Shown here one piece after another: positions 46,587 through 62,358 of a stretch of 64,000 nucleotides of DNA. The stretch's first letter is position 1. Each line of letters opens with the position of its first letter. Source of the DNA: an uncultured bacterium. GTDB taxonomy: Bacteria; Cyanobacteriota; Vampirovibrionia; Gastranaerophilales; Gastranaerophilaceae. The stretch covers positions 669,865 through 733,864 of the forward strand of contig CASERN010000011.1 in assembly GCA_949290355.1 (NCBI GenBank), read 5' to 3'. The notes under the pieces are model-generated. The model was not told where the DNA came from, made no database searches, and saw nothing but the letters and a program-made list of their open reading frames with translations. Made by a program: the position numbers and the translations under genes.

Positions 46587-47338
46587 ATATTAAATATTCT
46601 TTCCGCATTTTGTGTTGTAATATTTTTCACGTCATTTATGGTAATATTTTTAATTTTTGCGATTTCTTCTGCTACAAATTTTACATATGCCGGTTGATTT
46701 TCTTTCCCTCTATATGGTACAGGTGTTAAATATGGAGCATCTGTTTCCAGAATTATTTTTTCTATAGGCACATTTTTTACGACATCTTTCATTTTTATTG
46801 CGTTTTTAAATGTAACTACGCCGCCTATTCCTAAATACCACCCTTCTTTTATACATTCTTTAGCAAATTCTACGCTGCCTGAAAAGCAATGCATTATTAT
46901 TGTAGAATTTTTATTGTATTTTTTTACTATATCAAAAGTATCTTTATGCGCTTCTCTATCATGGATATCAATTGGGAGATTAAGAGAATTTGCAAGTTTT
47001 ATTTGTTTTATAAAAATTTCTTTTTGAAGCTCATTAAAACTTTTATCCCAGTAATAATCCAAACCTATTTCACCGATGCCTACAATTTTTTTGTTTTTTG
47101 AGTATTCTCTAATTTTATCAATTATACTATCGTCCCAGTCTTTCGCTTCAGATGGATGAATTCCAAGCATTCCATATACATTTTCGTATTTGTCAATTAA
47201 CTTCATTATGTCATCAAAGTCAGATTTACAGGCAGCTGGAACAATAACTTTTTCAATACCGTTTCTTTTTGCATTTTCAAGTATTTCGTCGGTGTTTAAT
47301 TCCAAAATTGTATTTATATGTGAATGTGTATCAATCAT
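46583..47338 (-). CDS. tatD: TatD-family metal-dependent hydrolase
   Basis: MIDTHSHIN, GEIGLDY, DIHDREA, IMHCFSG and ETDAPYL are all present. Confidence 0.85.
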   Translation of the reverse strand: MIDTHSHINTILELNTDEILENAKRNGIEKVIVPAACKSDFDDIMKLIDKYENVYGMLGIHPSEAKDWDDSIIDKIREYSKNKKIVGIGEIGLDYYWDKSFNELQKEIFIKQIKLANSLNLPIDIHDREAHKDTFDIVKKYNKNSTIIMHCFSGSVEFAKECIKEGWYLGIGGVVTFKNAIKMKDVVKNVPIEKIILETDAPYLTPVPYRGKENQPAYVKFVAEEIAKIKNITINDVKNITTQNAERIFNI

Positions 47339-47379
47339 ATAGAGATTATAGCACGATTATGTGTTATAATTAAACAAGC

Positions 47380-48114
47380 ATGGAAAAGAGAAATTTAAAA
47401 ATATCAATAGCCCATTTATATCCTAAATTGCTTAATTTGTATGGAGATATGGGGAATATTATAACTCTTATTAAGCGTTGTGAATGGCGCGGTATATCTG
47501 TTGAATTTGAACAGATTAATATTGGCGATAAAATCTCAAAACACGATTTATACTTTATAGGTGGTGGACAAGATAAACAACAGCAAGAGGTTGCAGGAGA
47601 GCTATATAAAAATAAGGATTTTTTGATTTGCGAAAGAGACAATAATTCTGTTTTTTTAGGCATATGCGGAGGCTATCAGCTTTTTGGACATTACTATCAG
47701 CCTTTTGAAGGTGATAAACTTTTAGGCATAAGTTTAATGGATGCTTATACTGTTGCCGGAAAAAAAAGATTTATTGGAAATGTTACAATTCAGACAGACT
47801 TTTTGACACCATCAACTCTTGTCGGTTTTGAAAATCATAGCGGATTGACTTATCTACAGGGAGATACTATACCTTTAGGAAAAGTTACGGTTGGAAATGG
47901 TAATAATGGTGTTGATAAAACAGAAGGAGCTCGTTATAAAAATGTATTTGGAACGTATTTACATGGGTCTCTTTTGCCTAAAAATCCAAATTTTGCTGAT
48001 TATTTAATAGAATTAGCTTTAGAAAAACGTTATGGAGAAAAATTTAATTTGTCTAAATTAGATGATAAAATAGAATATGAAACGCATAATTCGCTAGTAG
48101 GAAAAGCATATTAA
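47380..48114 (+). CDS. gatD: Lipid II isoglutaminyl synthase glutaminase subunit GatD (CobB/CobQ-like GATase)
   Basis: It is collinear by eye with S. aureus GatD: LNLYGDMGNIITL, FIGGGQD, catalytic Cys in GICGGYQLFG, GFENHSG and GTYLHGSLLPKNP. Confidence 0.8.
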   Translation: MEKRNLKISIAHLYPKLLNLYGDMGNIITLIKRCEWRGISVEFEQINIGDKISKHDLYFIGGGQDKQQQEVAGELYKNKDFLICERDNNSVFLGICGGYQLFGHYYQPFEGDKLLGISLMDAYTVAGKKRFIGNVTIQTDFLTPSTLVGFENHSGLTYLQGDTIPLGKVTVGNGNNGVDKTEGARYKNVFGTYLHGSLLPKNPNFADYLIELALEKRYGEKFNLSKLDDKIEYETHNSLVGKAY

Positions 48115-48539
48115 TGAATAGAGAATCCGTTGTAAATTTGTATAATAGGTGGTGTTTAATATCCGATAAAATTCGCTTTTTGCTTGTCGGAGGTTTTAAT
48201 GCTGCTTTTTCTTATGTAATATTTGCATTAGCTTTTTATTTGATGCATCATCAGCATTATCAAATATGTGTTGCATTACAGTGGATTATATCTTCTGTTT
48301 TTTCATTTACTAATCAAAAAGTTTTTGTATTTTGTACAAAGGGTAATTGGTTGAAAGAGTATTTTAAGTGTTGTACTACTTGGGTTGTAAGTTATATTTG
48401 TAATGCCATAATCCTTGAGATAATCGTTAGATATGTTACTAAAAACGTTTATATTGGACAAATTATTTCTATTTTTATGGCATCAATTGTTACCTATTTA
48501 TTATTTAAGTACTTTGCATTTAAGCATCATAAAAAATAA
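48114..48539 (+). CDS. GtrA-family membrane protein
   Basis: 141 aa with four TM segments and the N-terminal FLLVGGFNAAFSYVIF motif. The start overlaps the gatD stop (TAATG). Confidence 0.7.
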   Translation: MNRESVVNLYNRWCLISDKIRFLLVGGFNAAFSYVIFALAFYLMHHQHYQICVALQWIISSVFSFTNQKVFVFCTKGNWLKEYFKCCTTWVVSYICNAIILEIIVRYVTKNVYIGQIISIFMASIVTYLLFKYFAFKHHKK

Positions 48540-48564
48540 AAGCGGTTATTATTTAACCGCTTTT
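48538..48564. terminator. Bidirectional terminator between the gtrA-like gene and proS
   Basis: Stem AAAAGCGGTT/AACCGCTTTT with a 7-nt loop. The 3' arm overlaps the last proS codons. Confidence 0.65.
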
Positions 48565-50282
48565 ATAATATTGATAAGTTTTTGTGTTGCTTCCTCTGGT
48601 GTATATTTTTCTTGTTCTCCTGTTTCTCGGACTTTGTATTCAACGAATCCTTCATTAATTGTTTTCCCAACTGTTACTCTGTATGGGAAGCCTATCAAGT
48701 CAGCATCTTTGAATTTTACACCAGCTCTTTCATCTCTATCGTCAAGAACAACTTCTACTCCTGCTAATTTTAAAGCTTCATACATTTCATTTGCTACTTT
48801 CATTTGTAATTCATCTTTAATATTTACAGGTACTATTACAACATGGTATGGTGCAATAGCAATTGGCCATTTGATTCCGTGTTCGTCATAATGAGCTTCT
48901 ACAGCAGCTGCTGCAGTTCTTGAAATTCCTATTCCGTAGCAACCCATTACATAAGGATGAGTTTTCCCATTTATATCTGTATATACAGCATTCATTGGTT
49001 TTGAATATTTAGTTCCAAGTTTGAAAATATTTCCGACTTCAATACCTTTTGTTACAAATAAAGGTTTCCCGCATTGAGGGCAATATTCCCCTTGCTGTAC
49101 AAGTCTAATATCTGCATATTCTAATTCTGTTTCTAAATCGCATAAGTTAGCTCCAACTATATGTTTATCGGTAATATTTATACCTACAACAAAGTTTTTC
49201 ATATTACGGACAGTTTCATCTGCAATTATTGTAATATTTTTCATTCCCTTTGGCCCGATAAATCCCGGAACTGCATCAAAACCATTTTCTTCCATAAGTT
49301 CAGCGATTTCTGCAGAAGATGCAATTCTTACGTCTATACCACCAACAGCATTCATCAATTTTGTTTCTTCTACGGCTTTGTCTGCTCTAATTAATGCAAT
49401 TACAGGTTTTTTATCAATAATATATACAAGTGATTTTAAAATTAGTGTATCCGGAATATTTAAGAATTTACTTAATTCTTCGATAGAATGAGTGTTTGGA
49501 GTATCAATTACTTTTGTTTCTTTGAAGTAATCTTTTCCATCAACTACAGCATCAGGCAAGTTAGATATTGCATGGTTTGAATTTGCAGAATAATCGCAAT
49601 GATTGCAGTAGAATACGTCATTTTCTCCTGCATCAGTATCGGTTATAACCATAAATTCATGTGATACGCTTCCGCCAATTGCACCTGAATCAGATTGGAC
49701 CATCTTTGTATCAAGTCCACATCTTTCAAATATTTTTTTATAAGCTTTAGCCATATTTTGATATTCTTTATCAAGTCCGGCTTCATCAATATCAAAACTG
49801 TATGCATCTTTCATTATAAATTCACGGCCTCTTAAAAGTCCGTATCTTGGTCTTATTTCATCTCTGAATTTAGATTGAATTTGATATAGATTAACTGGTA
49901 ATTGTTTATATGACTTTAATGCATCACGTGCAACTGATGTAATGATTTCTTCGTGAGTAGGGCCAAGACACATATCTCTGTCATGGCGGTCTTTAAGACG
50001 CATTAATTCGCGGCCGTATACTTCCCATCTGCCTGATTCTTCCCATAATTCTTTAGGTTGAACGAAAGGCATTAAAAGTTCTTGTGCGCCTGCATTATCC
50101 ATTTCTTCTCTAACGATATTTTCTATTTTTTTCAAAACTCTCCACATCAAAGGCATATAAGTGTATACCCCTGGAGCAAGTTTTTTTATAAACCCTGCTC
50201 TACCAAGCATTTTGTGAGATATAACTTCAGCGTCAGAAGGATATTCTCTTAGGGTTTGTACAAACATTTTTGACATTTTCAT
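48549..50282 (-). CDS. proS: Proline--tRNA ligase (bacterial type with editing insertion)
   Basis: MKMSKMFVQTLREYP, class II motifs (FRDEIRPRYGLLRGREF, GCYGIGISR) and a central INS domain. It is 577 aa. Confidence 0.95.
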   Translation of the reverse strand: MKMSKMFVQTLREYPSDAEVISHKMLGRAGFIKKLAPGVYTYMPLMWRVLKKIENIVREEMDNAGAQELLMPFVQPKELWEESGRWEVYGRELMRLKDRHDRDMCLGPTHEEIITSVARDALKSYKQLPVNLYQIQSKFRDEIRPRYGLLRGREFIMKDAYSFDIDEAGLDKEYQNMAKAYKKIFERCGLDTKMVQSDSGAIGGSVSHEFMVITDTDAGENDVFYCNHCDYSANSNHAISNLPDAVVDGKDYFKETKVIDTPNTHSIEELSKFLNIPDTLILKSLVYIIDKKPVIALIRADKAVEETKLMNAVGGIDVRIASSAEIAELMEENGFDAVPGFIGPKGMKNITIIADETVRNMKNFVVGINITDKHIVGANLCDLETELEYADIRLVQQGEYCPQCGKPLFVTKGIEVGNIFKLGTKYSKPMNAVYTDINGKTHPYVMGCYGIGISRTAAAAVEAHYDEHGIKWPIAIAPYHVVIVPVNIKDELQMKVANEMYEALKLAGVEVVLDDRDERAGVKFKDADLIGFPYRVTVGKTINEGFVEYKVRETGEQEKYTPEEATQKLINIIKAVK

Positions 50283-50401
50283 AAAACTAATTCCTCATAT
50301 AATATTTTATATTAATGATTTTATCATAAAAAAAACATATTGAAATTTAATTGAAAATAAGTTATAATATTTTTGTTATATAAGAATACGAGGAGCAAAT
50401 T

Positions 50402-50449
50402 ATGAAAAAAATGTTAACGAATATGCCTTTCGGGGGGGGGGCGATTTAA
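50402..50449 (+). CDS. Candidate 15-codon upstream ORF (MKKMLTNMPFGGGAI) traversing the G10 tract
   Basis: SD AGGAG lies 7 nt upstream of the ATG. A same-length ORF with the same SD and the same FGGGAI* ending occurs at the second pilin locus. Coding status is unproven. Confidence 0.3.
   Translation: MKKMLTNMPFGGGAI
50432..50441 (+). repeat. G10 homopolymeric tract (candidate hypermutable simple sequence repeat)
   Basis: Ten consecutive G in an AT-rich window where every other G or C run I saw is 5 or shorter. The twin tract is at 55503-55512. Confidence 0.9.
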
Positions 50450-50474
50450 GGCTTTCTACAAAGGTTTTCGGGGG

Positions 50475-50502
50475 TTGCAAAAGTAAAAAAATCTGTTATA
50501 AT
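50475..50502 (+). promoter_or_regulatory. Sigma-70-type promoter with extended -10 for prepilin-like gene 1
   Basis: TTGCAA, a 16-nt spacer, then TGT-TATAAT (TGn extended -10). It is identical in copy 2. Confidence 0.6.
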
Positions 50503-50538
50503 AGTAATGTATGTCATCACAATTATAGCGGAGAGTTT

Positions 50539-51249
50539 ATGAAAAGATTATTCGGATTTACGTTAGCAGAGGTATTGATTACACTTGGAATTATTGGAGT
50601 TGTGGCTGCAATGACTATTCCTACATTAGTTGCAAATTATCAAAAGCAGGTTTGGGTTACTCAATTAAAAAAAGATGCAAACTTTATTTCGAATAGCATT
50701 AAAAAAGTATTAGCTGATGAAGAAGTTGATTCTCTTTGTAATGCATCTATTGGCGGCTGTAGCAGCAACTATATCAATATTGATGTTCCGAATATAAATC
50801 GTCCATATATTTTAGGTGAAAAATTTGGAAAGTATTTTGATCTGTCACCTGTAGAGCATGGAACTTTATTTTATGAAGCAATGGAGAACGAAATACCTAG
50901 TGCAGGTAGTGATGTTTCAGATTGGATAAAAGCTTTTTATTTAAAAGATGGCTCTTGCATAGCTACTGCTACAACTTATTCTACAACAGGTACAGCAGGT
51001 GCAACTGCTGCGTTAGGCTTTTTCGTTGATGTTAACTGTGATAAAGGCCCTAATAAGTGGGGACGTGATAGATTTTTAATAAACTATGATGCAAGAGGAA
51101 ATATTCCTGGATCAGGTTTCTCTGATGAAGAAATGAATTTGATTAAATCTATATGTTATTCAGGTGATGATATTATGGAGCAAGCCGGATTTTTGGCGGG
51201 ATTTTGTTCTCTTGATATTATTAGAAATGGTTGGCAGATGAAGTATTAG
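50539..51249 (+). CDS. Prepilin-type N-terminal cleavage/methylation domain protein (type IV pilin / T2SS pseudopilin-like)
   Basis: Class III signal peptide MKRLFG|FTLAEVLITLGIIGVVAAMTIP with Glu5. The motif FFVDVNCDKGPNKWGRDRF is shared with the second gene. SD is GGAGAG. Confidence 0.85.
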   Translation: MKRLFGFTLAEVLITLGIIGVVAAMTIPTLVANYQKQVWVTQLKKDANFISNSIKKVLADEEVDSLCNASIGGCSSNYINIDVPNINRPYILGEKFGKYFDLSPVEHGTLFYEAMENEIPSAGSDVSDWIKAFYLKDGSCIATATTYSTTGTAGATAALGFFVDVNCDKGPNKWGRDRFLINYDARGNIPGSGFSDEEMNLIKSICYSGDDIMEQAGFLAGFCSLDIIRNGWQMKY

Positions 51250-52172
51250 TTTATAAACTTGTCCAATTCTTTTTTTATTAATTTGGGCGGAATTGTTAAT
51301 GTATTATTATTTTTTAATGCATTATTCATACATTTAACATACTCATCATTTGCTTTTCTTAATTTTTGAATTTGGGCAAGTATGTAATAAGAATCTCCAT
51401 TTGCACCACAATTATCAATAGATTCTTCCATAATCATTGCAGCATTGTCATAGTGATGTTGTTTTGCCATTATTTTGGCATATATTCTATATGCATCAAT
51501 ATCTTTTGGGTTTAATTCAAGAGTTTTTCGCAGATTTTGGATAGCTGAACTTAAATTTCCTTCATCAAAATCTATTGATGCAAGATTATAATATGCCCAG
51601 CTGTAATCGGGTGATAGTTCAAGTACTTTTTTGAATTTATCTTTTGCACCAGCATTATCGCCTTGTTCTTTTAAAATATTTCCAATGTAAAAATGAGCAT
51701 ATATATCTTCATCATTAAGATCTATTGTTCTTTGAAAATAGTATTTTGCTCCGTCCAGTTTACCTTCTTTAAAATAACAAAGTCCTATTGAAAAATAGGC
51801 ATTTGAATCATTATTATCTTTTGCTAATACATTTTCAAAACAGTCTATAGCAGTTTCGAACTTTTTTTTATCAAGACATACAAGACCTAAATTGTAAAAA
51901 GCATCTGTTTCATTTGGAGATATCTCAATAGATTTTCTATATGCTTCTTCTGCTTTGTCTAAATCTTTTAGTTTTTCGTAAGTAATTCCAAGATTGTAAA
52001 AAATTCCACTGTCATCTGTAAAAATTTTTGATAAATATATAAAATGCTGTTTTGCTTCCTCTGGATATCCACAATCAAGCAATAATACAGCCAGTTCTCT
52101 GCGAGCTTGAAAATTTGTTGCATCTTCTTTTAAAAGATTTTGTAATTCTTCTATTTTATCAATTTTAGACAT
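51246..52172 (-). CDS. TPR-repeat protein
   Basis: It has about eight TPR units, for example AEEAYRKSIEISPNETDAFYNLGLVC. Confidence 0.7.
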   Translation of the reverse strand: MSKIDKIEELQNLLKEDATNFQARRELAVLLLDCGYPEEAKQHFIYLSKIFTDDSGIFYNLGITYEKLKDLDKAEEAYRKSIEISPNETDAFYNLGLVCLDKKKFETAIDCFENVLAKDNNDSNAYFSIGLCYFKEGKLDGAKYYFQRTIDLNDEDIYAHFYIGNILKEQGDNAGAKDKFKKVLELSPDYSWAYYNLASIDFDEGNLSSAIQNLRKTLELNPKDIDAYRIYAKIMAKQHHYDNAAMIMEESIDNCGANGDSYYILAQIQKLRKANDEYVKCMNNALKNNNTLTIPPKLIKKELDKFIN

Positions 52173-52279
52173 ATTAAAATTGTACTAATTTTTATTAATT
52201 CGAGCAACTTCTTAATATTTTGCTATTGCTTTTTTTTATAAATTTGCTAAAATGGATTGAAAAATAAGGAGAGTATATT

Positions 52280-52954
52280 ATGAGATTTTTAGCTATAATT
52301 TTTTCGATTTTACTTTTTGCTCAAACAGCAATATCTGCACCATTTAGTGCAAATGCTAAAACAAAAAGAATCCCTGCAGGAACAAAGTTTTCTCTAAAAC
52401 TTATGAATCCAGTATCTACAATGACAAATTCTGCAGGCTCAGAATTTACTGCAATATTGATGACAGATGAGACTGCTGATTCTGATGTTATACTGCCTAT
52501 GGGTTCATTAGTGAGAGGTACTATTAAAAAAATAGAACCTGCAAAACGTATGTCCAAGGGTGCAATTTTATATCTTGATTTTGATCATGTTGTTACTCCA
52601 AATGGGAGACAGTTACCATTAACTTTTTCTGTAATAGGTAGAAGTGATTTGACATATGACGGCGGAATTACATCTTCAAGAGGTTATAAAGACGCTTTGA
52701 AAGAAAATTGGGAAGTAACAAAAGATATTACAAGTTCTGCTACAGAATGGGGCGGAGATGTATTTGATGATGTGATTGTGGCTGATCAATTGATGACAGG
52801 AATTTGTGCTGTAGGTGGCGCAATTGGAGGCGGTGCTTATTATATATATGATGGTATTGCTGATATGATAAGAAAAGGAAAAGATGTTAATTTAAGACAA
52901 GGTGAAGTCTTAAATGTTATTCTTGTTGACCCTGTGGATGTTCCTGTAATTTAG
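52280..52954 (+). CDS. Secreted protein with TrbI/VirB10-like beta-barrel pattern and C-terminal Gly-rich hydrophobic segment
   Basis: Signal peptide ILLFAQTAISA. IPAGTKFSLKLMNPVST...AILMTDE...VILPMGSLVRGTI...VVTPNGRQLPL resembles the VirB10/TrbI C-terminal domain pattern. This is a call by eye only. Confidence 0.45.
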   Translation: MRFLAIIFSILLFAQTAISAPFSANAKTKRIPAGTKFSLKLMNPVSTMTNSAGSEFTAILMTDETADSDVILPMGSLVRGTIKKIEPAKRMSKGAILYLDFDHVVTPNGRQLPLTFSVIGRSDLTYDGGITSSRGYKDALKENWEVTKDITSSATEWGGDVFDDVIVADQLMTGICAVGGAIGGGAYYIYDGIADMIRKGKDVNLRQGEVLNVILVDPVDVPVI

Positions 52955-52983
52955 GAAGCTTTTATATTTTTTATAATTAATTT

Positions 52984-53014
52984 GTAGGATAAGTCTTTAA
53001 TATACTTATCCTAC
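52984..53014. terminator. Bidirectional terminator between convergent genes
   Basis: Perfect 11-bp stem GTAGGATAAGT/ACTTATCCTAC with a 9-nt loop. The 3' arm overlaps the cyclase stop codon. Confidence 0.6.
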
Positions 53015-54772
53015 TTGATTTCTCCCATTATTTTTAGCATTATATAATTTTTTATCAGCAGCTTCAATAAGTTCAGATGCATTTTCTCCATCATAAGGAA
53101 ATGTAGCTACTCCTAAGCTGATTGTTACATTAGATTCTTTATCATTAGTAAGTTTAAATTTTTTTGCGGCAACTTTTTCACAAATTTTCTTAGCTGTTGA
53201 CATTGCTTCTTCTTTATCTGTGTTTGCTAGAATAATACTCATTTCCTCTCCGCCGTATCTGCATACAATATCTGTAGATCTGACATTCTTTTTTAATGTT
53301 TGCGCTACTTGACGCAATACGGCATCTCCTGATTGATGACCGAATTTGTCATTAAACTTTTTAAAGAAATCTATATCAATAATAATAAGTGAAAAGTTGG
53401 TATCGTATCTTCTGCATTGTTCAATTTGCATTCTTAGGTGTTCTTGGAAATATCTGTGGTTGTATAATTCTGTTAGTCCATCAGTTGTTGCAAGTTTGTA
53501 TTGCTGCTCAAAATCTCTTGATTTTAAAATATATTTTATTATATATGCACAGGTAAAAGCTAGAATAGAGAATATCAAAGGATATGTAACATTAAGCCAA
53601 AGATTTTCAAATTTCATTGCATAATATGAAATAAATAAGTATATTATGTATGTTGAACATGACACTAATGATGCGGTAAATGCGGAACTTACTCTTGTTA
53701 CAACGGAGCCAATCAGTAGTGCTAATAATATACTTAGTGTAATTGTGTATTTTTTATTTACTTTTTTAATAAAGTTGTTATCTATCATGTTATTAATATA
53801 AGTAGCTTGTATTTCTACTCCAGGATAAATTTTGCCTGTTGGAACGGTTTTTATATCAAATAAGCTTGAAGCTGTTGTTCCAAAGTATATTATTTTATTA
53901 GAAAAATCATAATTAAGATCTGTTTGTTCTCCATTAACGATTTTTATGAGTTTATAAATCGGAATATATGTATAAGTACCTGCAGGCCCGTACCAATTTA
54001 ATATAGCACTGCCATCGTTATCCAAATATATTTTTTTATCTCCGAATATAAAGTTAGAATTTTTATCAATTGCAAAAGAAGAAGTATTTTCTCCCAAATA
54101 ATCTACTCCAATTTTGAATGCAAGTTGTGGGTAAAATTCTCCATTATATTTTACGACAACTGGCATTTTCCTTAGTATTCCGTCATCTGAACGAGAAACG
54201 TTTATTATTCCTATGTTTGATGTTGCATCAATAATTCCTTGCAATATCGTTCTACAATTTTTGAACGACAGTTTATCAAATTTTATTTGAGAAGAATTAT
54301 CAATTTCTACCGTAAGTTTGTGGGGTAATTTAGGGGGCATTCTCAAATCTTCTGATTGATTATCAAAATTCATTGCGGTGTATAAATTTTTATATTTTTT
54401 GAAAGAATTAATTAATGCTTCATCGGCTTTGTTTTTACTTTTGAGTGATTTTACAAACATCATATCAAAAGCTATTGATCTTGGATTTTGTTTTTCAAGG
54501 TAATTGATAATACTAGCATAAATATCTCTTGAAAGAGGCCATTCTCCATAATTATCCAATATGTATTCATAAGAAGCATCATCTACAGCTATAATAACTA
54601 TGTCTTTATTCGCTTGTTTTGCTCCTTCTGATATTAATATATTTTGCCTTAAATCAAATGTCCTATTTTCAACAGAATCAATGAAAGCTATTAAATTAGC
54701 ATTCTTAAATATTAAAAACGTAAAAATCGCAAAGAATAACAATCCCAATGCGTATAATATTCTTTTTAACAT
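53006..54772 (-). CDS. Diguanylate cyclase with periplasmic CHASE2 sensor domain
   Basis: The layout is N-terminal TM, about 300 aa extracytoplasmic region, three TM helices, then a GGDEF domain. The active site is RYGGEEM and the I-site RSTD lies five residues upstream. Confidence 0.85.
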   Translation of the reverse strand: MLKRILYALGLLFFAIFTFLIFKNANLIAFIDSVENRTFDLRQNILISEGAKQANKDIVIIAVDDASYEYILDNYGEWPLSRDIYASIINYLEKQNPRSIAFDMMFVKSLKSKNKADEALINSFKKYKNLYTAMNFDNQSEDLRMPPKLPHKLTVEIDNSSQIKFDKLSFKNCRTILQGIIDATSNIGIINVSRSDDGILRKMPVVVKYNGEFYPQLAFKIGVDYLGENTSSFAIDKNSNFIFGDKKIYLDNDGSAILNWYGPAGTYTYIPIYKLIKIVNGEQTDLNYDFSNKIIYFGTTASSLFDIKTVPTGKIYPGVEIQATYINNMIDNNFIKKVNKKYTITLSILLALLIGSVVTRVSSAFTASLVSCSTYIIYLFISYYAMKFENLWLNVTYPLIFSILAFTCAYIIKYILKSRDFEQQYKLATTDGLTELYNHRYFQEHLRMQIEQCRRYDTNFSLIIIDIDFFKKFNDKFGHQSGDAVLRQVAQTLKKNVRSTDIVCRYGGEEMSIILANTDKEEAMSTAKKICEKVAAKKFKLTNDKESNVTISLGVATFPYDGENASELIEAADKKLYNAKNNGRNQVG

Positions 54773-54800
54773 AAGCCTCTAATCTTCTTAAATTATTCAA

Positions 54801-54968
54801 TTATTTTATTATATCAGTATAATTGAATGTTGAAGATTTGGCAACAAAATTTTTTAGGATAAATTGTTTTTCAAGGATAAAGTTATTTAGTTTTAATACT
54901 TCAGTTGAATATGATAATTCATCAGGGTTTTGTAAATATCTTAGTAGGCATTGCTCGTGCAGATTCAT
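54801..54968 (-). CDS. Possible 55-aa protein upstream of the cyclase gene
   Basis: An ATG-initiated ORF (MNLHEQCLLRYLQNPDELSY...) with SD AAGGTG. It falls below the ORF-track length cutoff. I recognise no homology. Confidence 0.25.
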   Translation of the reverse strand: MNLHEQCLLRYLQNPDELSYSTEVLKLNNFILEKQFILKNFVAKSSTFNYTDIIK

Positions 54969-55159
54969 ATAATTTAATCACCTTTTAAACTAATTTCGTA
55001 TAACTTTCTCATTATTGCAAATTTAATAAAAATTAACATCAGACAAATGCATGAGATTTAAAAAGCTATTGCACTTTTTTATTTCTGTAGTACTATTATA
55101 TCAGTAGAACTAAATTTATAATCAAGTTTGGAATCTTGAGAAAAAGAAAGAGGTAAAAA

Positions 55160-55363
55160 ATGAAACAAGGAATACATCCGGATTATAAAAAAACTGTAAT
55201 CAAATGTGTATGCGGTAATGAGATTGAAACTGGTTCAATAAATGATAATATCACTGTTGAAATTTGTAACAATTGTCATCCATTTTACACAGGTCAACAA
55301 AAAATCTTAGACTCAGAAGGTCGTGTTGAAAGATTTAATAAACGTTACGGTAAAAAAGCGTAG
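55160..55363 (+). CDS. rpmE: 50S ribosomal protein L31 (zinc-ribbon form)
   Basis: [11 protein letters not shown]...CVCG...[15 protein letters not shown] is AAGAGG. Confidence 0.95.
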
Positions 55364-55386
55364 TTTTTTTCTGCAGATAAGATAAT

Positions 55387-55422
55387 AAAAAAACAAGAGA
55401 ATTTTACTTCTCTTGTTTTTTT
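55387..55422 (+). terminator. Rho-independent terminator after rpmE
   Basis: AAAAAAACAAGAGA, an 8-nt loop, then TCTCTTGTTTTTTT. Confidence 0.8.
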
Positions 55423-55472
55423 ATGGTAAATCGTTTATAATAATCAATATATAAATGAAAGGAGCAAGATTT

Positions 55473-55520
55473 ATGAAAAGATTTGACTTATTGCAGGATT
55501 TCGGGGGGGGGGCGATTTAA
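55473..55520 (+). CDS. Candidate 15-codon upstream ORF (MKRFDLLQDFGGGAI) traversing the G10 tract
   Basis: SD AGGAG. The length and the 30-nt ATG-to-tract spacing match copy 1, although codons 3-9 differ. Confidence 0.3.
   Translation: MKRFDLLQDFGGGAI
55503..55512 (+). repeat. G10 homopolymeric tract, copy 2
   Basis: Ten consecutive G at the position homologous to 50432-50441. Confidence 0.9.
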
Positions 55521-55545
55521 GGCTTTCCACAAAGGTTTTAGGGGG

Positions 55546-55573
55546 TTGCAAAAGTAAAAAAATCTGTTATAAT
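55546..55573 (+). promoter_or_regulatory. Sigma-70-type promoter with extended -10 for prepilin-like gene 2
   Basis: TTGCAA, a 16-nt spacer, then TGT-TATAAT. Confidence 0.6.
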
Positions 55574-55609
55574 GGTAATGTATGTCATCACAATTATAGC
55601 GGAGAGTTT

Positions 55610-56350
55610 ATGAAAAAAATATTCGGATTCACATTGGCAGAGGTATTGATTACTTTAGGAATTATAGGAGTTGTAGCAGCATTAACTATACCCTCTGTAA
55701 TTGGAAATTATAAAAAAGAGGTGACTGCTAAAAAATTAGAACATACCTATTCAGTATTATCTCAAGCACTAAGGGCTGCTCAAGCAGAACATGGAGACCC
55801 TGCTAATTGGGATCTAGGTGGTTTTTATTATGGTATGCCTGCAGATGGAAGTAAAGAAACTATTTTGAATAATTTCGCAAGTAATTATTTATTGCCTTAT
55901 TTGAAAGTGATTAAAGATTACGGTTTTGTTACAACAAGCCAAGCTTCAACAAAAGTAGGATATGACGGTCCTTATAAGCCTATATCAAATGACTTTGCCG
56001 GTTTAAATGAAGGATATTATTTTGTTTTAGCTGATGGTACTTTAGTAAATTTATTTCTAGGTTCAAATTGTTCAGGATATGATTCTGATGGAAAATGTAA
56101 TGCGTATTCATACGCTTATATAACTTTTGGTGTTGATATAAACGGTTCAAAAGGTAATAATCAACTCGGTAAAGAGTACTTTTTGATGTATTATAATCAA
56201 GCAACCCATAAATTTTTGATGTATAGTGCAGGAAATAATGCTTCTAGAGATTTTATGCGAAGCTCTTGTAATACTGATGATGCATTAAGTTGTGGTGGAC
56301 TTATTCAGTATGACGGATGGAAGATAAAGGATGATTACCCTTGGTTTTAG
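55610..56350 (+). CDS. Prepilin-type N-terminal cleavage/methylation domain protein (type IV pilin / pseudopilin-like)
   Basis: MKKIFG|FTLAEVLITLGIIGVVAALTIP. It has the shared motif FGVDINGSKGNNQLGKEYF and a C-terminal DGWKIK resembling NGWQMK of gene 1. Confidence 0.85.
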   Translation: MKKIFGFTLAEVLITLGIIGVVAALTIPSVIGNYKKEVTAKKLEHTYSVLSQALRAAQAEHGDPANWDLGGFYYGMPADGSKETILNNFASNYLLPYLKVIKDYGFVTTSQASTKVGYDGPYKPISNDFAGLNEGYYFVLADGTLVNLFLGSNCSGYDSDGKCNAYSYAYITFGVDINGSKGNNQLGKEYFLMYYNQATHKFLMYSAGNNASRDFMRSSCNTDDALSCGGLIQYDGWKIKDDYPWF

Positions 56351-57210
56351 TTAGGGCATCTGGCTAGCCAGATATCGCTCACTACATTTTCTAATACTCT
56401 TTTACTAACAGAACCTGTTAAAAAACGATCTAATTTTGATTTGTTTTTAGAACCTAATATTATTAGGTCAATATTGTGTGTTCTTGTATATTCTATTATT
56501 CGTTGTGCAGGTATGCCATTTAATATTGCTGTTTCATATGCTTTTATATTATATTGATTCAAGATTCTTTCTATATCTTCAATTGCGCTCGCTGCATATT
56601 TTTGTTGTTGTTTTTGTATTTCAAATAACCAATTTGTATCTAATGTCCCATCCAAAAATAAAAGATTAGGGTCTTCGTTTACCATGCAAATATGTATTTC
56701 TTTATTTTCTAAATTTAAAGATGGTATTATTTTATCTAATATATTCAAAGAACATTTTGTTCCATCTGTTGTGATAAGCAGTTTTTTCTTTTCGTTTTCT
56801 TCTTTTGAAATATAATTTGAGATTTTGCTGCTGTTGATTATTTCTTGGGATACTGATCCAAGCCATTTTTGCAGTCCCTTTTTCCCATGCGATCCCATTA
56901 AAATAAGATCATAATCTTTTTTGTTAGCCTGCTCAAGTATACTTTCAATTGCAGAGCCGCAATTTTTTATTTTTTCACCGGTTTTAAGACCTAATTTTTC
57001 AATTTCTTCTGTTGCATAATCAAGTATTGTATCGGCAACGTTAGCGCAAGAGTATGAAAAATTTTTTTCTTCTATATTTATTTCATCTGGTAAAAAACTC
57101 CAATCAATTACGCAAATAGTATCTATTTCTGCATTATTTATCCAGCCGTTAATGTTTTTTAATGCTTTAAAACTGATTTTTGAACCGTCTGTGCAAAATA
57201 ATATTTTCAT
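56347..57210 (-). CDS. Universal stress protein, tandem Usp domains
   Basis: Two repeats of the pattern MKILFCTDGS...LILMGSHGK / LLITTDGT...LIILGSKNKSKLDRFLTGSVS. SD is AAGGAG. Confidence 0.75.
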   Translation of the reverse strand: MKILFCTDGSKISFKALKNINGWINNAEIDTICVIDWSFLPDEINIEEKNFSYSCANVADTILDYATEEIEKLGLKTGEKIKNCGSAIESILEQANKKDYDLILMGSHGKKGLQKWLGSVSQEIINSSKISNYISKEENEKKKLLITTDGTKCSLNILDKIIPSLNLENKEIHICMVNEDPNLLFLDGTLDTNWLFEIQKQQQKYAASAIEDIERILNQYNIKAYETAILNGIPAQRIIEYTRTHNIDLIILGSKNKSKLDRFLTGSVSKRVLENVVSDIWLARCPN

Positions 57211-57344
57211 ATATTCTCCTTTTTTTATATTTTTTCTAAATTAAATATAATTTATGTTAAGAGAAATTACATTGTCTGGTATTCTATATTTTTTTTTGTT
57301 ATTATGTTGTTAGGGAAATGTTTTTATAGGAATATGTTATAGTC

Positions 57345-57962
57345 ATGACAGCAAAGCAAAACATTCGTCAAAAGATTAATTTAAGCGATTATAAGAATTT
57401 AGTTGATACAATTGCAAAGGTTGAGTACCAAAAATTTTCTACATCTCATCTCATAGAATTGCCTGAACTTATTAATATTGGAAATCATACATTATATATT
57501 TTATTTAAAAATAATCCTCCAGAACATTTCAACAATACATATCTATCTACCGCAATCAAATGGGCTATAAGAAACGAAGTAAGACGAAGATATAAATGGT
57601 ATTCTTTAAAAAATAAAAGACAGCAGGCAGTAGATGATAATGAAAATTTGAGGGAAGAAGTATATAAAACAATTCTTTCTATTGATGAAATGCAAGAAGC
57701 TGAAGTGCCAACTCAAATTAAGGCAGATGATTTAACTCCAGAGGAAAGTATTGAGCTTTCTGAATTAAAATCTGAGATATTGGAATCAATGAAAAAGCTG
57801 CCTCAAAGGGAAAGAGAATTAATTGAGTATAAGTTCTTTAAAGAAAAAAAATTAAGAGAAATTGCAGAAGAGTTTAATATTTCTCAATCAAGAATTTCTC
57901 GCATTATTCAATCAGGTTTGGATAAAATAAAAAGAGATTTAAAAAAACAGGGGATTATTTAG
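57345..57962 (+). CDS. Sigma-70 family sigma factor (group 3, FliA/SigF-like region 4)
   Basis: Region 2-like LSTAIKWAIRNEVRR. Region 4 reads LPQRERELIEYKFFKEKKLREIAEEFNISQSRISRIIQSGLDKIK. There is no clear SD, so the start is uncertain. Confidence 0.7.
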   Translation: MTAKQNIRQKINLSDYKNLVDTIAKVEYQKFSTSHLIELPELINIGNHTLYILFKNNPPEHFNNTYLSTAIKWAIRNEVRRRYKWYSLKNKRQQAVDDNENLREEVYKTILSIDEMQEAEVPTQIKADDLTPEESIELSELKSEILESMKKLPQRERELIEYKFFKEKKLREIAEEFNISQSRISRIIQSGLDKIKRDLKKQGII

Positions 57963-59386
57963 TGGATACAATTTTTGAAAAAAGTAATGGAATTTCAGGT
58001 ATAACTTTAACCGATGAAAAAGAAGACCTGTCATTCATTGATAAATCTTTATTAAGAAATTCTGAAATAGGTTTGCCTCAAGTAAGTGAACTACAAGCTA
58101 TGCGTCATTATAAAGAGTTATCTGACAAGAATTTTTGTATAGAAAAAGGTTTCTATCCTTTAGGTTCTTGTACAATGAAATATAACCCTAAAGTAAATGA
58201 ATTGTTAGCAAGTTTAGAAGGGTTTGCAAATTTACATCCGCTTTCTGATGATTTTGACTGTCAAGGTGCTCTTGAATTAATGTATAATCTTCAAGAATTA
58301 CTAAAAAAGATAACCGGTATGAGTGCTGTTTCTTTGCTACCAGCTGCTGGAGCTCATGGAGAGCTTACTGGAATGATGGTAATAAAAAAATATTTTGAAG
58401 TAAAAGGTGATAAACGCAAGAAAGTTATTATTCCTGATTCCGCTCATGGTACTAATCCCGCAAGTGCTCATCTTTGTGGCTTTGATGTAGTTTCTGTTAA
58501 ATCAAATGAAAAAGGTCAGGTTGATATTGAAGCATTAAAAGAAATTTTAGACAAAGATGTTGCTGCAATAATGATGACTAACCCAAATACTTTAGGTATT
58601 TTTGAAGAACATGTTCTTGAAATATCAAAATTAATGCATGAAAATGGTTCTTTGCTTTATTATGATGGAGCAAATCTTAATGCAGTAATGGGTTATACAA
58701 ATCCAAAATTAATGGGATTTGATGTCGTTCATTTGAATTTGCATAAAACATTTTCAACTCCTCATGGGGGTGGCGGTCCTGGTGCTGGCCCAGTTTGTGT
58801 AACCGATGAATTAAAGGATTGTCTGCCAGTTCCTGTTGTTGATTTTAATGGAGAAAAATATTTTAGAAATTATGATTTAGAGCATACAATTGGAAAGGTA
58901 AAAGCTTTTTATGGTAATTTCGGAGTTTTAATAAAAGCATATGCATACATCCTTATGATGGGTGATAATTTAAAAGAAGCAAGTGCAAATGCTGTTTTGA
59001 ATGCAAATTATTTAAAAGAAAAATTAAAACAAGCATACCTTCTCCCATATGATGTTCCTTGTATGCATGAATTTGTGCTTTCTGGCGAAAAAATAAAGGA
59101 ACAGTATGGTGTATCAACATTAAATATTGCAAAAGCATTAATGGATGATAATACTCATCCTCCAACTGTTTATTTCCCATTAATTGTTCATGAGGCAATT
59201 ATGATTGAGCCTACGGAATCTGAGACAAAGGATGTTCTTGACAATTTTATTTCTGTAATGTTAAAAATTGCTAAAGAGGCTGAGAATAATTCTGAAAAAC
59301 TCATTTCTGCTCCTCATAATACTCCAGTAAAAAGGATTGATGAAACATTAGCTGCTCGTCATCCTAATTTAAAATTTGTACAGTAA
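57962..59386 (+). CDS. gcvPB: Glycine dehydrogenase (aminomethyl-transferring) subunit 2
   Basis: PLP-lysine motif HLNLHKTFSTPHGGGGPGAGP. The GTG start overlaps the sigma-factor stop by 1 nt. Confidence 0.9.
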   Translation: MDTIFEKSNGISGITLTDEKEDLSFIDKSLLRNSEIGLPQVSELQAMRHYKELSDKNFCIEKGFYPLGSCTMKYNPKVNELLASLEGFANLHPLSDDFDCQGALELMYNLQELLKKITGMSAVSLLPAAGAHGELTGMMVIKKYFEVKGDKRKKVIIPDSAHGTNPASAHLCGFDVVSVKSNEKGQVDIEALKEILDKDVAAIMMTNPNTLGIFEEHVLEISKLMHENGSLLYYDGANLNAVMGYTNPKLMGFDVVHLNLHKTFSTPHGGGGPGAGPVCVTDELKDCLPVPVVDFNGEKYFRNYDLEHTIGKVKAFYGNFGVLIKAYAYILMMGDNLKEASANAVLNANYLKEKLKQAYLLPYDVPCMHEFVLSGEKIKEQYGVSTLNIAKALMDDNTHPPTVYFPLIVHEAIMIEPTESETKDVLDNFISVMLKIAKEAENNSEKLISAPHNTPVKRIDETLAARHPNLKFVQ

Positions 59387-59408
59387 AAAAAGATAAGAGA
59401 TAAATAAA

Positions 59409-60551
59409 ATGACAGATAAAAAGAAAAAATTAAAAGTAGCATTCCCTCATATGGGAACAGTATATATAGCTTGGTCAGCAGCTTTGAAAAAAGTTGGTGT
59501 AGAACCTTTTGTACCACCTTATACGAGCAAAAAGACTCTTTCCTTAGGTACAAAACATTCTCCAGAGGCTATATGCTTGCCTTACAAGTTAATTTTAGGT
59601 AACTTTATTGAAGCCATTGAAGGTGGAACTGATTATGTTGCAATGATTTCATCTCCTGGTTGTTGCAGATTAGGTGAATATGGAAATTGTATTTATAATG
59701 CACTTACTGATTTAGGCTATCATACAAAGTATATTGAATTAACTCTTTATGACGGAATAAAGGGAATGTATGACTTTTTAAAAAAAATTAGCGGGAAAAA
59801 TGATCCGATTTTATTTGCAAGAGCTATTAATATTGCGATAAGAAAAGTTTTTGTCCTTGATGATTTAGAAAATTTATTATCATATTATAGAGCAAGAGAA
59901 ATAAAATTTGGGGATGCTGAAAAACATTATCATAAAGCTATTAATTACATTAAAGATGCTGATAATACAAGAAAATTGAACAAAGCAAAGAAAATGGCTT
60001 TTGAAGAAATGAAAAAGACCGAAATTGATCCTAATAAAGAGGTTTTGAATGTTGATTTAACAGGAGAGATTTATCTTGTATGCGATCAATTTTCTAATCA
60101 GGATATTACGAGAGAACTTGGTAAAATGGGGGTTCAAACAAGACGCAGTTTGACTATTAGTAGTTTCTTGAAGGATGCTATTATTCCTAAAGTTTTCAGA
60201 AAAGGTGAAACTCATCTTCAAAGAGCTTATCGTCTTGCAAAACCTTATTTGATGCGTGATATTGGAGGTGATTCTCTTGAGTGCGTATCAGATGTTGCTT
60301 ATGCTGATGAGAGAGGTATAGACGGTATTATTCATATTAGTCCGTTTACTTGCATGCCTGAAATTATGTCGCAGAATATTTTCCCTGCAATGAGAGAAAA
60401 TTGTGATATTCCAATTTTACCTTTAATAATGGATGAGCAGACCGGTAAAGCTGGATATATAACAAGATTGGAAGCCTTTGTTGATTTGATGAGGAGACGT
60501 AAAAGAAAATTAGCCGCTGAACAACAAAATCAACCTGAGCTTGCTAAGTAA
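59409..60551 (+). CDS. Stand-alone DUF2229-type protein (acyl-CoA dehydratase activase-associated domain)
   Basis: KVAFPHMGTVYIAWSAALKKVGVEPFVPPYTSKKTLSLGTKHSPEAICLPYKLILGNF matches my recollection of the family N-terminal pattern. Confidence 0.55.
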   Translation: MTDKKKKLKVAFPHMGTVYIAWSAALKKVGVEPFVPPYTSKKTLSLGTKHSPEAICLPYKLILGNFIEAIEGGTDYVAMISSPGCCRLGEYGNCIYNALTDLGYHTKYIELTLYDGIKGMYDFLKKISGKNDPILFARAINIAIRKVFVLDDLENLLSYYRAREIKFGDAEKHYHKAINYIKDADNTRKLNKAKKMAFEEMKKTEIDPNKEVLNVDLTGEIYLVCDQFSNQDITRELGKMGVQTRRSLTISSFLKDAIIPKVFRKGETHLQRAYRLAKPYLMRDIGGDSLECVSDVAYADERGIDGIIHISPFTCMPEIMSQNIFPAMRENCDIPILPLIMDEQTGKAGYITRLEAFVDLMRRRKRKLAAEQQNQPELAK

Positions 60552-60594
60552 ATAGGTTATTACATAAAAATTTGTAAGAGGTTATCATAGACTT

Positions 60595-61458
60595 ATGCAT
60601 AAAATATTTAAAGAGGCAGTGAAAATAACAAATTACAATATTATATTAACTATTCCGTTAATTATATTTGTCAAAATCTTGGATTTGTATTCTTTATATT
60701 CAAGATATCATGTTGATTCTACTCCAAAATTTATATTAGCGTCAATAACTGTTTTATTTATGTTCGCAGTATTTTGTGCAAGTTGGTTTTATATGGTAAA
60801 AGGTGCTATCGATCTATCTAAAAAAGTATTTGTATTGGATGAAGATAGGGCTAAAGCAACTTTAAATTTATTCAAAACTATACCGGACGGAATTAGTAAA
60901 TTCTTTTTGCCTTTTGTTGGTGTGTATATAATATTTATTCTAATTCAAGTCTTTGCTACACCTTTGGTTTCTATGATAGGAGTAAAAGTTATCGGAAGCC
61001 TTGATGCAGTTTCAATGCAGCATTTACAACAAATTACGATTGATTCATCTTTGACGACGCCTGAGGGAATGGCAGAATTTATCAACAGTTTGACTCCTGA
61101 GCAGATAATATTTTTTGGAAAATGGAGTTTATTGTTTATGTTTTTTACTTCATTAATAATGTATTTACTTTTGCTATGGATTCCTGAAATTGTTTATTCA
61201 ACTCCAAATCCAATAGTTGCTTTATGGAGAGGGTTGTGTAAATTATTTAAAGATTTTTTTGTAAGTGTTAGATTGTATCTAGCTTTGTGGTTTCTTGGAT
61301 TTATTTTACTTTTTATAAATACTTTTGCGCTCATTAATCCTATTGCTTATATAGTAATGAGTATATTGTTATTTTATTTTTCGGTTTATTTTGTTATTGT
61401 TATATTTTTGTACTATGACAAAACTTTTGTAGAATTGGAAAATCATGAAGACGATTAA
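60595..61458 (+). CDS. Hypothetical polytopic membrane protein
   Basis: It has about six hydrophobic helices and no recognisable motif. Confidence 0.5.
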   Translation: MHKIFKEAVKITNYNIILTIPLIIFVKILDLYSLYSRYHVDSTPKFILASITVLFMFAVFCASWFYMVKGAIDLSKKVFVLDEDRAKATLNLFKTIPDGISKFFLPFVGVYIIFILIQVFATPLVSMIGVKVIGSLDAVSMQHLQQITIDSSLTTPEGMAEFINSLTPEQIIFFGKWSLLFMFFTSLIMYLLLLWIPEIVYSTPNPIVALWRGLCKLFKDFFVSVRLYLALWFLGFILLFINTFALINPIAYIVMSILLFYFSVYFVIVIFLYYDKTFVELENHEDD

Positions 61459-62323
61459 GAAAACTAAGGTATATGCAATTGTTGGTGCTACAGCAAGTGG
61501 GAAAAGTGCTTATGCGGTGGATTTGGCTAAAAAATTAGATGGAGAAATTGTTTCTGCTGATTCACGATTGGTATATAGGGGATTTGATATTGCAACAGCA
61601 AAGCCTACTTTTGAGGAGATGGCAGGTATTCCTCATTATATGATCGATGTTGTAGAACCTGAAGTTGATTATTCTGCAGGTCTTTATGCCAAAGAAGCAA
61701 AAAAACATATTGATAATATTATTTCAAAAGGTAAAATCCCTATTGTTGTAGGTGGTACTGGGTTATATTTTAGAGTTTTGTTAGAAAATTATGATCTCCC
61801 AAATGTTGCACCTGATTATAATTTGCGGAATGAGCTTTCTGAAAAATCTTTTGATGAATTGTTAAATATTTTATTAAAATTGGATATTGATGCTGCAAGT
61901 TCTGTAGAATTAAATGATAAAAAGAAATTAATTCGTTATATTGAAATTGTAAAATCTACAGGTGTATCTTTAAGTAATGCAAGAGGAATAAAAGATTGTG
62001 ATTATGATGTTGAGTGGATTGGGTTAAATTTCCCAAGGGAAATTTTATATTCAAGAATAAATGATAGAGTCGAACAGATGATTGAAAAAGGCTTAATAAA
62101 AGAGACTGAAAAGCTTTTGCAGCAGCATGGACGAATTAAAAACATTGTAGATACAATAGGTTATAAAGAAATAATATCTTATTTGGATGGTCAATGTACT
62201 TTAGACAATGCCATAAATAAATTAAAACAAAATACAAGAAATTACGCTAAAAGGCAATTAACATGGTTTAGAAAAAATGAAAAAATAAATTGGAACTGTT
62301 ATCCTGAGAAAAAGAAGAAATAA
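61445..62323 (+). CDS. miaA: tRNA dimethylallyltransferase
   Basis: P-loop IVGATASGKS. SADSRLVYRGFDIATAKP, HYMIDV and VGGTGLYF are also present. Confidence 0.9.
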   Translation: MKTIKKTKVYAIVGATASGKSAYAVDLAKKLDGEIVSADSRLVYRGFDIATAKPTFEEMAGIPHYMIDVVEPEVDYSAGLYAKEAKKHIDNIISKGKIPIVVGGTGLYFRVLLENYDLPNVAPDYNLRNELSEKSFDELLNILLKLDIDAASSVELNDKKKLIRYIEIVKSTGVSLSNARGIKDCDYDVEWIGLNFPREILYSRINDRVEQMIEKGLIKETEKLLQQHGRIKNIVDTIGYKEIISYLDGQCTLDNAINKLKQNTRNYAKRQLTWFRKNEKINWNCYPEKKKK

Positions 62324-62358
62324 TTTCCAAATTGATATTTCAATCAAAAGGGGTGTGG

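Follow-up and report, generated by a model that had tools for sequence, protein, structure and literature searches.

Poly-G tracts as probable phase-variable switches in the leaders of prepilin-type genes of Gastranaerophilales

Introduction

What does a run of ten guanines do in the leader of a prepilin gene? The question is raised by a 64-kb stretch of DNA (the window, by which the whole stretch is meant; 30% G+C) from an uncultured bacterium of the Gastranaerophilaceae, in which two genes for prepilin-type proteins, pil1 and pil2, are each preceded by a short open reading frame (ORF) that contains a tract of ten G nucleotides (G10). An initial annotation described the tract of pil1, and proposed that a change in its length could switch between separate translation of the upstream ORF and the pilin, and fused translation of the two as a single long-leader prepilin. 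The second G10 module, that of pil2, was not mentioned in that finding. The analysis presented here leads us to conclude, with a probability of about 0.7, that G10 is a slipped-strand contingency locus in the 5′ coding part of a long-leader prepilin, and that the window carries it in the out-of-frame state.

The two leader modules

There are exactly two runs of six or more G or C nucleotides in the window, and both are G10. About 0.001 runs of G10 or C10 are expected from the base composition, and because two are observed, both in prepilin leader modules, a chance origin is excluded. Nor is the run explained by a need for glycine, because GGG is the rarest glycine codon in the ORFs of the window and comprises only 11% of them. 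The features of the two modules are itemized below, with a slash marking the prepilin cleavage site. The Shine–Dalgarno sequence is abbreviated SD.

Features of the pil1 module:

50340–50368, plus strand: upstream promoter-like site P1, TTGAAA-17-TATAAT, with 11 of 12 consensus matches; assigned by consensus match only
50390–50395, plus strand: SD GAGGAG of the upstream start; AGGAGC is kept in both window copies and in the related loci L003 and L004
50402–50449, plus strand: upstream ORF in the G10 state, MKKMLTNMPFGGGAI and stop, from translation; at G11 it would be the 5′ end of the long-leader prepilin ORF
50432–50441, plus strand: G10 homopolymer, the putative hypermutable element; G9 at the same locus in L086
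50442–50538, plus strand: leader segment open in the pilin frame, DLRLSTKVFGGCKSKKICYNSNVCHHNYSGEF, holding the internal regulatory module; 0 stops in this frame versus 5 and 2 in the other frames
50475–50502, plus strand: internal promoter-like site P2, TTGCAA-16-TATAAT with TG (extended −10), beginning 33 nt past the tract
50492–50532, plus strand: inverted repeat TATAATnGT[AG]AT...[AG]TCACnATTATA, extending from the −10 to the pilin SD; predicted fold with z = −2.7, kept in 5 of 6 sequences
50530–50535, plus strand: SD GGAGAG of the pilin's own start, identical in the pil2 copy
50539–51249, plus strand: prepilin gene 1, 236 aa, MKRLFG/FTLAEVLITLGIIGVVAA..., matching PF07963 and TIGR02532

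Features of the pil2 module:

55413–55441, plus strand: upstream promoter-like site, TTGTTT-17-TATAAT, read from the sequence as aligned with P1; unscored
55460–55464, plus strand: SD AGGAG of the upstream start, from the sequence and the alignment of pil1 with pil2
55473–55520, plus strand: upstream ORF in the G10 state, MKRFDLLQDFGGGAI and stop, from translation
55503–55512, plus strand: second G10 homopolymer; G11 (in frame) at the same locus in L085
55546–55573, plus strand: internal promoter-like site P2′, identical to P2; two exact 30-nt matches in the window, with 0 expected
55610–56350, plus strand: prepilin gene 2, 246 aa, MKKIFG/FTLAEVLITLGIIGVVAA..., matching PF07963 and TIGR02532

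Both modules have the same order, comprising an SD, an ATG, ten codons, G10 and a stop two codons on, and from the tract as far as the pilin ATG there is no stop in the pilin frame. The distance from the upstream ATG to the tract is 30 nt in both, and that from the upstream ATG to the pilin ATG is 137 nt (frame +2). The first ten codons of the upstream ORF differ (MKKMLTNMPF for pil1 and MKRFDLLQDF for pil2), being equal in length. Conservation between the two copies is poor on the 5′ side of the tract except for the SD, the ATG and the length, while the 110-nt stretch from the tract to the pilin ATG is 97% identical, and is thus better conserved than the pilin coding sequence downstream.

Most of what the initial annotation stated about pil1 is borne out by the sequence and its translation. 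The G10 run lies inside an upstream ORF of 15 codons, the pilin ATG is found at the distance and in the frame described, and the pilin frame is free of stops from 50368 to this ATG. The SD is present upstream of the ATG at 50402 as claimed, with a spacer of 6 nt and not 7. The upstream ORF ends with the TAA at 50447–50449. At G11 translation would read ...FGGGGDLRLSTKVFGGCKSKKICYNSNVCHHNYSGEF-MKRLFGFTLAE, and G8 would likewise fuse the upstream ORF to the pilin; at G9 it would meet a TAA within the internal promoter's spacer and end there. These predicted outcomes of the different lengths also agree with the initial annotation.

The leader beyond the tract

Stop codons were counted between the tract and the cleavage site in 26 distinct leaders having at least 60 nt between the tract and the cleavage codon. 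The pilin frame contains 10 stops, compared with 100 and 77 in the other two frames, and nine of the 10 fall in three outlier loci. About two thirds of the pilins with a tract lack an ATG of their own in frame. For example, in L003 and L004, whose pilins are 63% identical to pilin 1, the start chosen by the gene caller is a TTG inside EVLVTLG; upstream lie an SD, an ATG, nine codons and G10, one G short of joining KKSG/FTLAE. Some database proteins are called in frame from the upstream start. Two of these read MKRFEIRRAFRGGGKHVA/FTLAE and MKNFLSSFGGGGTSGLTPKLLA/FTLAE, and P0094, which reads MENTDMNAFCGGGASEPLNSRGCKSQKICYNSDVYNHKYNGGFMKKFFA/FTLAE, is homologous to the long leader of the window. 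The bias against stops, the missing ATGs and the database proteins called from the upstream start together indicate that the stretch past the tract is translated in the pilin frame.

Length alleles of the tract

The locus of the window has the gene order polA ... tatD, proS, pil1, a TPR gene, a GGDEF gene, rpmE and pil2, and was recovered from five other assemblies. The lengths of the two tracts are as follows.

pil1 tract: window G10, L001 G10, L002 G10, L085 G10, L086 G9, L087 G10
pil2 tract: window G10, L001 not covered, L002 G10, L085 G11, L086 G10, L087 G10

The G11 tract of pil2 in L085 has the in-frame length, and is the sole in-frame allele of the window-type locus. A homologous gene in human-gut samples has G11 in L088–L090, where it is fused as MKRFEVRRALGGGGNREQERVMTKKTA/FTLAE, and G10 in L091–L093, where the gene caller places the start of these alleles at MTKKTA. 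Clusters at 90% identity mix in-frame long leaders, truncated calls and interrupted tracts that are in frame (CRGWGQ, CRGGEQ and LGEGAI). In one metagenome-assembled genome (MAG) there are two paralogues, one in frame with G10 (L069) and the other out of frame with G11 (L010). Both in-frame and out-of-frame alleles of one gene therefore occur. As read from these assemblies, the pattern bears the marks of a hypermutable tract that toggles the reading frame at the level of the DNA.

In the G10 allele of the compact pilin gene at L088:1531-1575 the TAA of the upstream ORF overlaps an internal ATG (GTGTAATGACT) that is preceded by AGGAG. Through translational coupling, the out-of-frame state may therefore still give a prepilin with a short leader.

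These leaders are often found at or near the ends of metagenome contigs, as in L001, L002, L085, L092 and L093, and in L091:1425-1480 the tract is immediately followed by an N gap and then by a long stretch of artefactual poly-C. The contig breaks would fit repeats or length heterogeneity confusing the assemblers, which is suggestive only.

Occurrence of the tract in the pilin family

The exact pattern of the post-tract leader has 0 matches in genome contigs and 0 in metagenome contigs, and at this stringency the leader type of the window is, as far as the sequence databases indicate, species-specific. For this reason relatives were sought through the protein, and the search found more than 7,000 for the window pilins. 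A scan taking one genome per species gave 80 loci, labelled mostly as Candidatus Gastranaerophilales, Gastranaerophilaceae, Melainabacteria or Vampirovibrio. The window therefore belongs to a non-photosynthetic gut bacterium that is related to Cyanobacteria and has a large family of pilin-like proteins.

A run of G8–12 or C8–12 is present at the leader position in about 45% of 114 pilin N-termini. Considering G alone, a sense-strand run of at least seven is present in the 260 nt before 36 of 110 pilin N-termini, taken from 499 kb of pilin loci; its length is G10 in 25, G11 in four, G9 in three, G12 in three and G8 in one. C8–C12 is found at the same leader position in nine more of the 114. Viewed from the homopolymers, 42 of the 64 sense-strand runs of at least seven in an enlarged set of loci precede a pilin motif.

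The design is constant in >30 loci. An SD and an ATG are followed by 7–10 codons (often beginning MKRF), then by the run read as GGG GGG GGG, and then, after a stretch that is short or long depending on the locus, by [GA]/FTLAE. The SD and ATG are found 21–31 nt on the 5′ side of the tract in dozens of diverged paralogues. Most of the tract-bearing pilins are compact, with the tract 10–22 nt from the cleavage codon; these have no internal promoter and keep the arrangement of SD, ATG and tract.

In some loci poly-C (C8–C12, read as PPP) replaces poly-G. These are L006:2446-2455, L038, L039, L051, L052, L054, L060 and, on the minus strand, L002. The poly-C tracts are also mostly one base short of the in-frame length. 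The copy in L002 (GCA_964328035.1, the closest related genome) is part of an insertion of ∼950 nt between the FtsJ-like and TatD genes (L002:3098-4045) that neither the window nor L085 has; it carries a minus-strand pilin gene, not called by the annotation, with a C10 leader tract.

The putative internal promoter and the leader cassettes

The genes pil1 and pil2 belong to a long-leader class in which the tract is followed by 33 nt, the promoter-like sequence TTGCAA-N16-TATAAT with TG, the inverted repeat, GGAGAG and an ATG. In pil1 this internal ATG gives the canonical short leader MKRLFG. The same promoter is found at the same 33-nt offset in L048, L070 and L078, and in a weaker form in L040. 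Among these relatives the 33 nt between the tract and the −35 have diverged in sequence, with the length kept. Because the internal promoter, SD and ATG lie past the tract, the window pilins are partly independent of it, a feature overlooked in the initial annotation, and could presumably be expressed at any tract length by way of this promoter and start.

The inverted repeat is located at 50492–50532 and 55563–55603 in the window, and is also present in L048, L070 and L078. Its pairs are nearly invariant, with one compensatory change in a covariation test, and an operator bound by a repressor is as likely as a 5′ RNA hairpin. In transcripts driven from P1 the repeat could fold and partly cover the pilin SD, and expression of the pilin from such transcripts would then depend on the fused frame. 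The pattern CK..KICYN..D..HHNY was considered as a functional leader peptide and rejected, being the translation of the TTGCAA-N16-TGTTATAAT promoter and palindrome at fixed spacing.

The pil1 leader of L086 and L087 is a different cassette (L086:5871-5945 and L087:5880-5954, corresponding to 50442–50553 of the window). It is 39 nt shorter, ends ...SGQSARLG/FTLAE and has neither the internal promoter nor the internal ATG, so that by its sequence the tract in these two genes is a strict switch. The same type of cassette is found in P0010, P0023, P0037 and P0112, of which P0037 probably derives from the window's own genome. The distribution suggests that leader cassettes recombine or move between pilin paralogues.

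Proposed mechanism and its alternatives

In the reading we favour, the true upstream start would be the SD-preceded ATG at 50402 for pil1 and at 55473 for pil2. At G10 translation from this start would end after 15 codons in both window genes, and at G11 or G8 it would pass through GGGG and the leader into ...G/FTLAE. The tract is placed where a change of 1 nt can alter expression, since it lies 30 nt past the SD and ATG and G11 brings this ATG into frame with the pilin. The frame would be toggled whenever replication adds or removes one G, as the allele differences between strains suggest. In paralogues without an internal start the tract would be a true ON/OFF switch. In the window genes the internal extended −10 promoter, SD and ATG give a short leader. 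The G10 state would yield a 15-aa peptide and the short-leader prepilin, and the G11 state a prepilin with a 52-aa leader made via the upstream promoter and strong SD. The switch would thus most likely alter which prepilin precursor is made and how much, and is probably not all-or-none.

The contingency switch between separate and fused translation put forward in the initial annotation is supported by the length alleles, the stop bias and the conserved SD and ATG. The tract is not invariant across strains (pil1 is G9 in L086 and pil2 is G11 in L085), stops in related leaders are scarce in the pilin frame, and the upstream ORF has a translation signal that is conserved in dozens of paralogues. 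Of the two side suggestions of the initial annotation, slippage (ribosomal or transcriptional) and a change in promoter spacing, the latter is the less likely.

Several observations weigh against this reading. The G11 tract of L085 lies 8 nt from the end of its contig, and is treated with caution. The length differences are all between assemblies. In the window pilins the presence of a promoter-like site, SD and ATG of their own would blur the phenotypic effect of the switch. To our knowledge, a leader of 52 residues is much longer than the leaders of the type IV pilins that have been studied. Finally, the lengths are skewed. G10 is dominant, being the length of 28 out of 42 distinct tracts that come from many MAGs and studies, and of the 37 tracts with an identifiable SD and ATG 26 are one base short, six are one base too long and only five are in frame. 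Simple unbiased switching does not predict this excess of tracts that are one short. It could be explained by common descent of the paralogues, G11 being the in-frame length, by a deletion bias at long tracts or, by analogy with opa genes, by selection for most copies being silent.

The same skew could mean that G10 is itself the functional length. A fraction of the transcripts or ribosomes would then reach the pilin frame by programmed recoding, in which the ribosome slips by −1 on G GGG GGG or RNA polymerase inserts a G, giving stochastic, non-heritable, low-level expression of many pilin paralogues. The excess of tracts needing one more base, which includes 22 of the 25 G10 tracts whose start can be identified, and the modal status of G10 would both be accounted for. 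So would the use of the rarest glycine codon and the presence of a stop in the zero frame 2–3 codons past the tract in most cases (GGGAI, GGGAL and GGGAF, each followed by a stop), and a −1 slip on a G run permits perfect re-pairing. The zero-frame heptamer G GGG GGG is present in the run, which is trivially true of any G10. We nevertheless consider recoding unlikely. In-frame alleles exist at the DNA level and are the consensus in some samples, three leaders are in frame at a length of 10 (L028, L069 and, with C10, a gene in L039), and some tracts preserve the frame although they are interrupted. No conserved stimulatory structure or other frameshift-stimulating element was found downstream, where the predicted fold pairs the tract itself and the sequence diverges between homologues; only TTTAAAGCT is conserved past the tract, reading L-K-L in the pilin frame and a stop in the upstream frame. 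Transcriptional slippage in bacteria takes place less readily on runs of G or C than on A or T runs, and the skew is also obtainable from shared ancestry at G11 together with deletion bias. A composite scheme, in which the one-G-short length is a selected default decoded at low frequency by −1 slippage or G insertion, with a DNA switch to G11 and a nested promoter, operator, SD and ATG in addition, is doubtful to a similar extent. If correct, its three tiers would provide constitutive short-leader, stochastic recoded and heritable phase-ON expression of a large pilin repertoire.

A role for the tract as a spacer, setting the phase or distance between the internal promoter and an upstream site or UP-like element with the upstream ORF being incidental, would agree with the constant 33 nt from the tract to the −35 in pil1, pil2, L048, L070 and L078 despite diverged sequence, and with the conservation of the 110-nt stretch above that of the coding sequence. 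It seems quite improbable, given that most tract-bearing pilins are compact and without the internal promoter yet keep the SD, ATG and tract, that the pilin frame is kept open across the region, and that the poorly conserved sequence on the 5′ side of the tract is unlike a protein-binding site. Even harder to accept is that the tract is a decaying remnant bypassed by the internal start, or that the run lengths are errors of sequencing or assembly. The window pilins could in principle be expressed without the tract, and there are contig breaks or artefacts beside the tracts of L085, L091, L092 and L093. An unselected G10 in a genome of 30% G+C should however decay, which makes a relic unlikely; the homopolymers have no interruptions in the two paralogues, nor in six assemblies that come from different studies, the same architecture is present in dozens of MAGs from different pipelines, and the frame is kept open. 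A poly-G artefact of the NovaSeq type was rejected, as the runs are internal, their biological context is conserved, and they turn up again with different assemblers and in different studies.

Comparison with known systems

The kind of system favoured here, a homopolymer contingency locus, is well known. The poly-G tracts of Neisseria pilC1 and pilC2 reportedly cause phase variation by frameshifting in the signal-peptide-coding region of a pilus-associated gene. The resemblance is close, with a G run of ∼10–13 nt a few codons past the start, in the leader of a type IV pilus gene, and a frame switch by one base. Unlike pilC, the tract is here in the prepilin-type genes themselves, in many paralogues per genome of uncultured Gastranaerophilales, and the window copies hold a nested promoter and start on its 3′ side. 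Campylobacter jejuni is likewise said to have poly-G contingency loci. There too the genome has ∼30% G+C, runs of at least eight G or C are essentially confined to surface-structure genes, the lengths are G8–G12 and the alleles differ between strains. The C. jejuni tracts are mostly in genes for glycosylation, capsule and lipooligosaccharide and may be anywhere in the ORF, whereas here they occupy one position in one protein family; switching rates have been measured in C. jejuni, while the alleles here are read from assemblies.

The opa genes of Neisseria (CTCTT) and outer-membrane protein genes of Helicobacter pylori (CT) have repeats in their leader-coding regions. As in those families, each surface-protein paralogue has its own leader repeat and most are out of frame at a time, giving combinatorial expression. 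The differences are that the repeat here is mononucleotide, and that the products are prepilin-type proteins, processed by prepilin peptidase rather than signal peptidase I. In Bordetella fim2 and fim3 a poly-C tract that separates the activator site from the −10 inside the promoter acts on transcription. It is similar in being a homopolymer upstream of a fimbrial subunit gene near a promoter; the present tract differs in lying 33 nt on the 5′ side of the internal −35 and inside an ORF, and most family members are without that promoter.

A consensus that is one base short at a slippery homopolymer also recalls programmed −1 frameshifting and slippage in dnaX, insertion sequence (IS) elements and Shigella mxiE. 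In bacteria, known recoding takes place on A or T runs, or on X XXY YYZ heptamers accompanied by a structure or an SD-like sequence that stimulates it. Neither kind of stimulator is conserved here, and in-frame alleles exist at the DNA level.

Implications

A full-text literature search found no report of homopolymer phase variation in Melainabacteria or Gastranaerophilales, though one may still have been published. What appears to be new is the lineage, the family of proteins concerned, the constant site of the tract within the prepilin leader throughout that family, and the nesting of a promoter and start inside a long leader. The Gastranaerophilales (Melainabacteria) are widespread, essentially uncultured gut bacteria whose surface biology is unknown. 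If nearly half of their prepilin-type genes do have a hypermutable leader tract, a population would continuously vary the pilins that it displays. This would be relevant to adhesion, to immune or phage evasion (type IV pili being common phage receptors) and to natural transformation. In addition, gene callers systematically mis-start or miss these genes, giving truncated N-termini, spurious upstream starts and uncalled ORFs. As a result of the mis-starts, the missed genes and the assembly breaks at the tracts, pilin repertoires are mis-annotated in MAG catalogues.

The pilin genes and their surroundings

Both proteins have the prepilin motif G/FxxxE followed by a hydrophobic helix. PF07963 is matched with 22.2 bits by pilin 1 and 22.5 bits by pilin 2 (cut-off 21.2), and TIGR02532 with 18.9 and 18.4 bits, respectively (cut-off 16.3). 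An exact look-up of the pilin 2 protein gave no record. The whole window has no match to Rfam at gathering thresholds, which means that the leader belongs to no known type of riboswitch or leader RNA, and a tRNA scan of the window found no tRNA genes.

The two pilin genes are solitary among housekeeping genes, with proS (on the opposite strand) on the 5′ side of pil1 and rpmE on the 5′ side of pil2. No peptidase or assembly genes were seen among the ORFs of 47000–64000, the annotated part of the window. Each pilin gene overlaps a convergent neighbour by 4 nt, tail to tail. For pil1 this is the TPR gene (51246–52172, minus strand) and for pil2 a gene of 287 aa (56347–57210, minus strand), with no terminator between either pilin gene and its neighbour. 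On the 3′ side of rpmE there is a terminator-like hairpin with a T run (55390–55425; caagaga...tctcttg and T7), which overlaps the −35 of the upstream promoter-like site of pil2.

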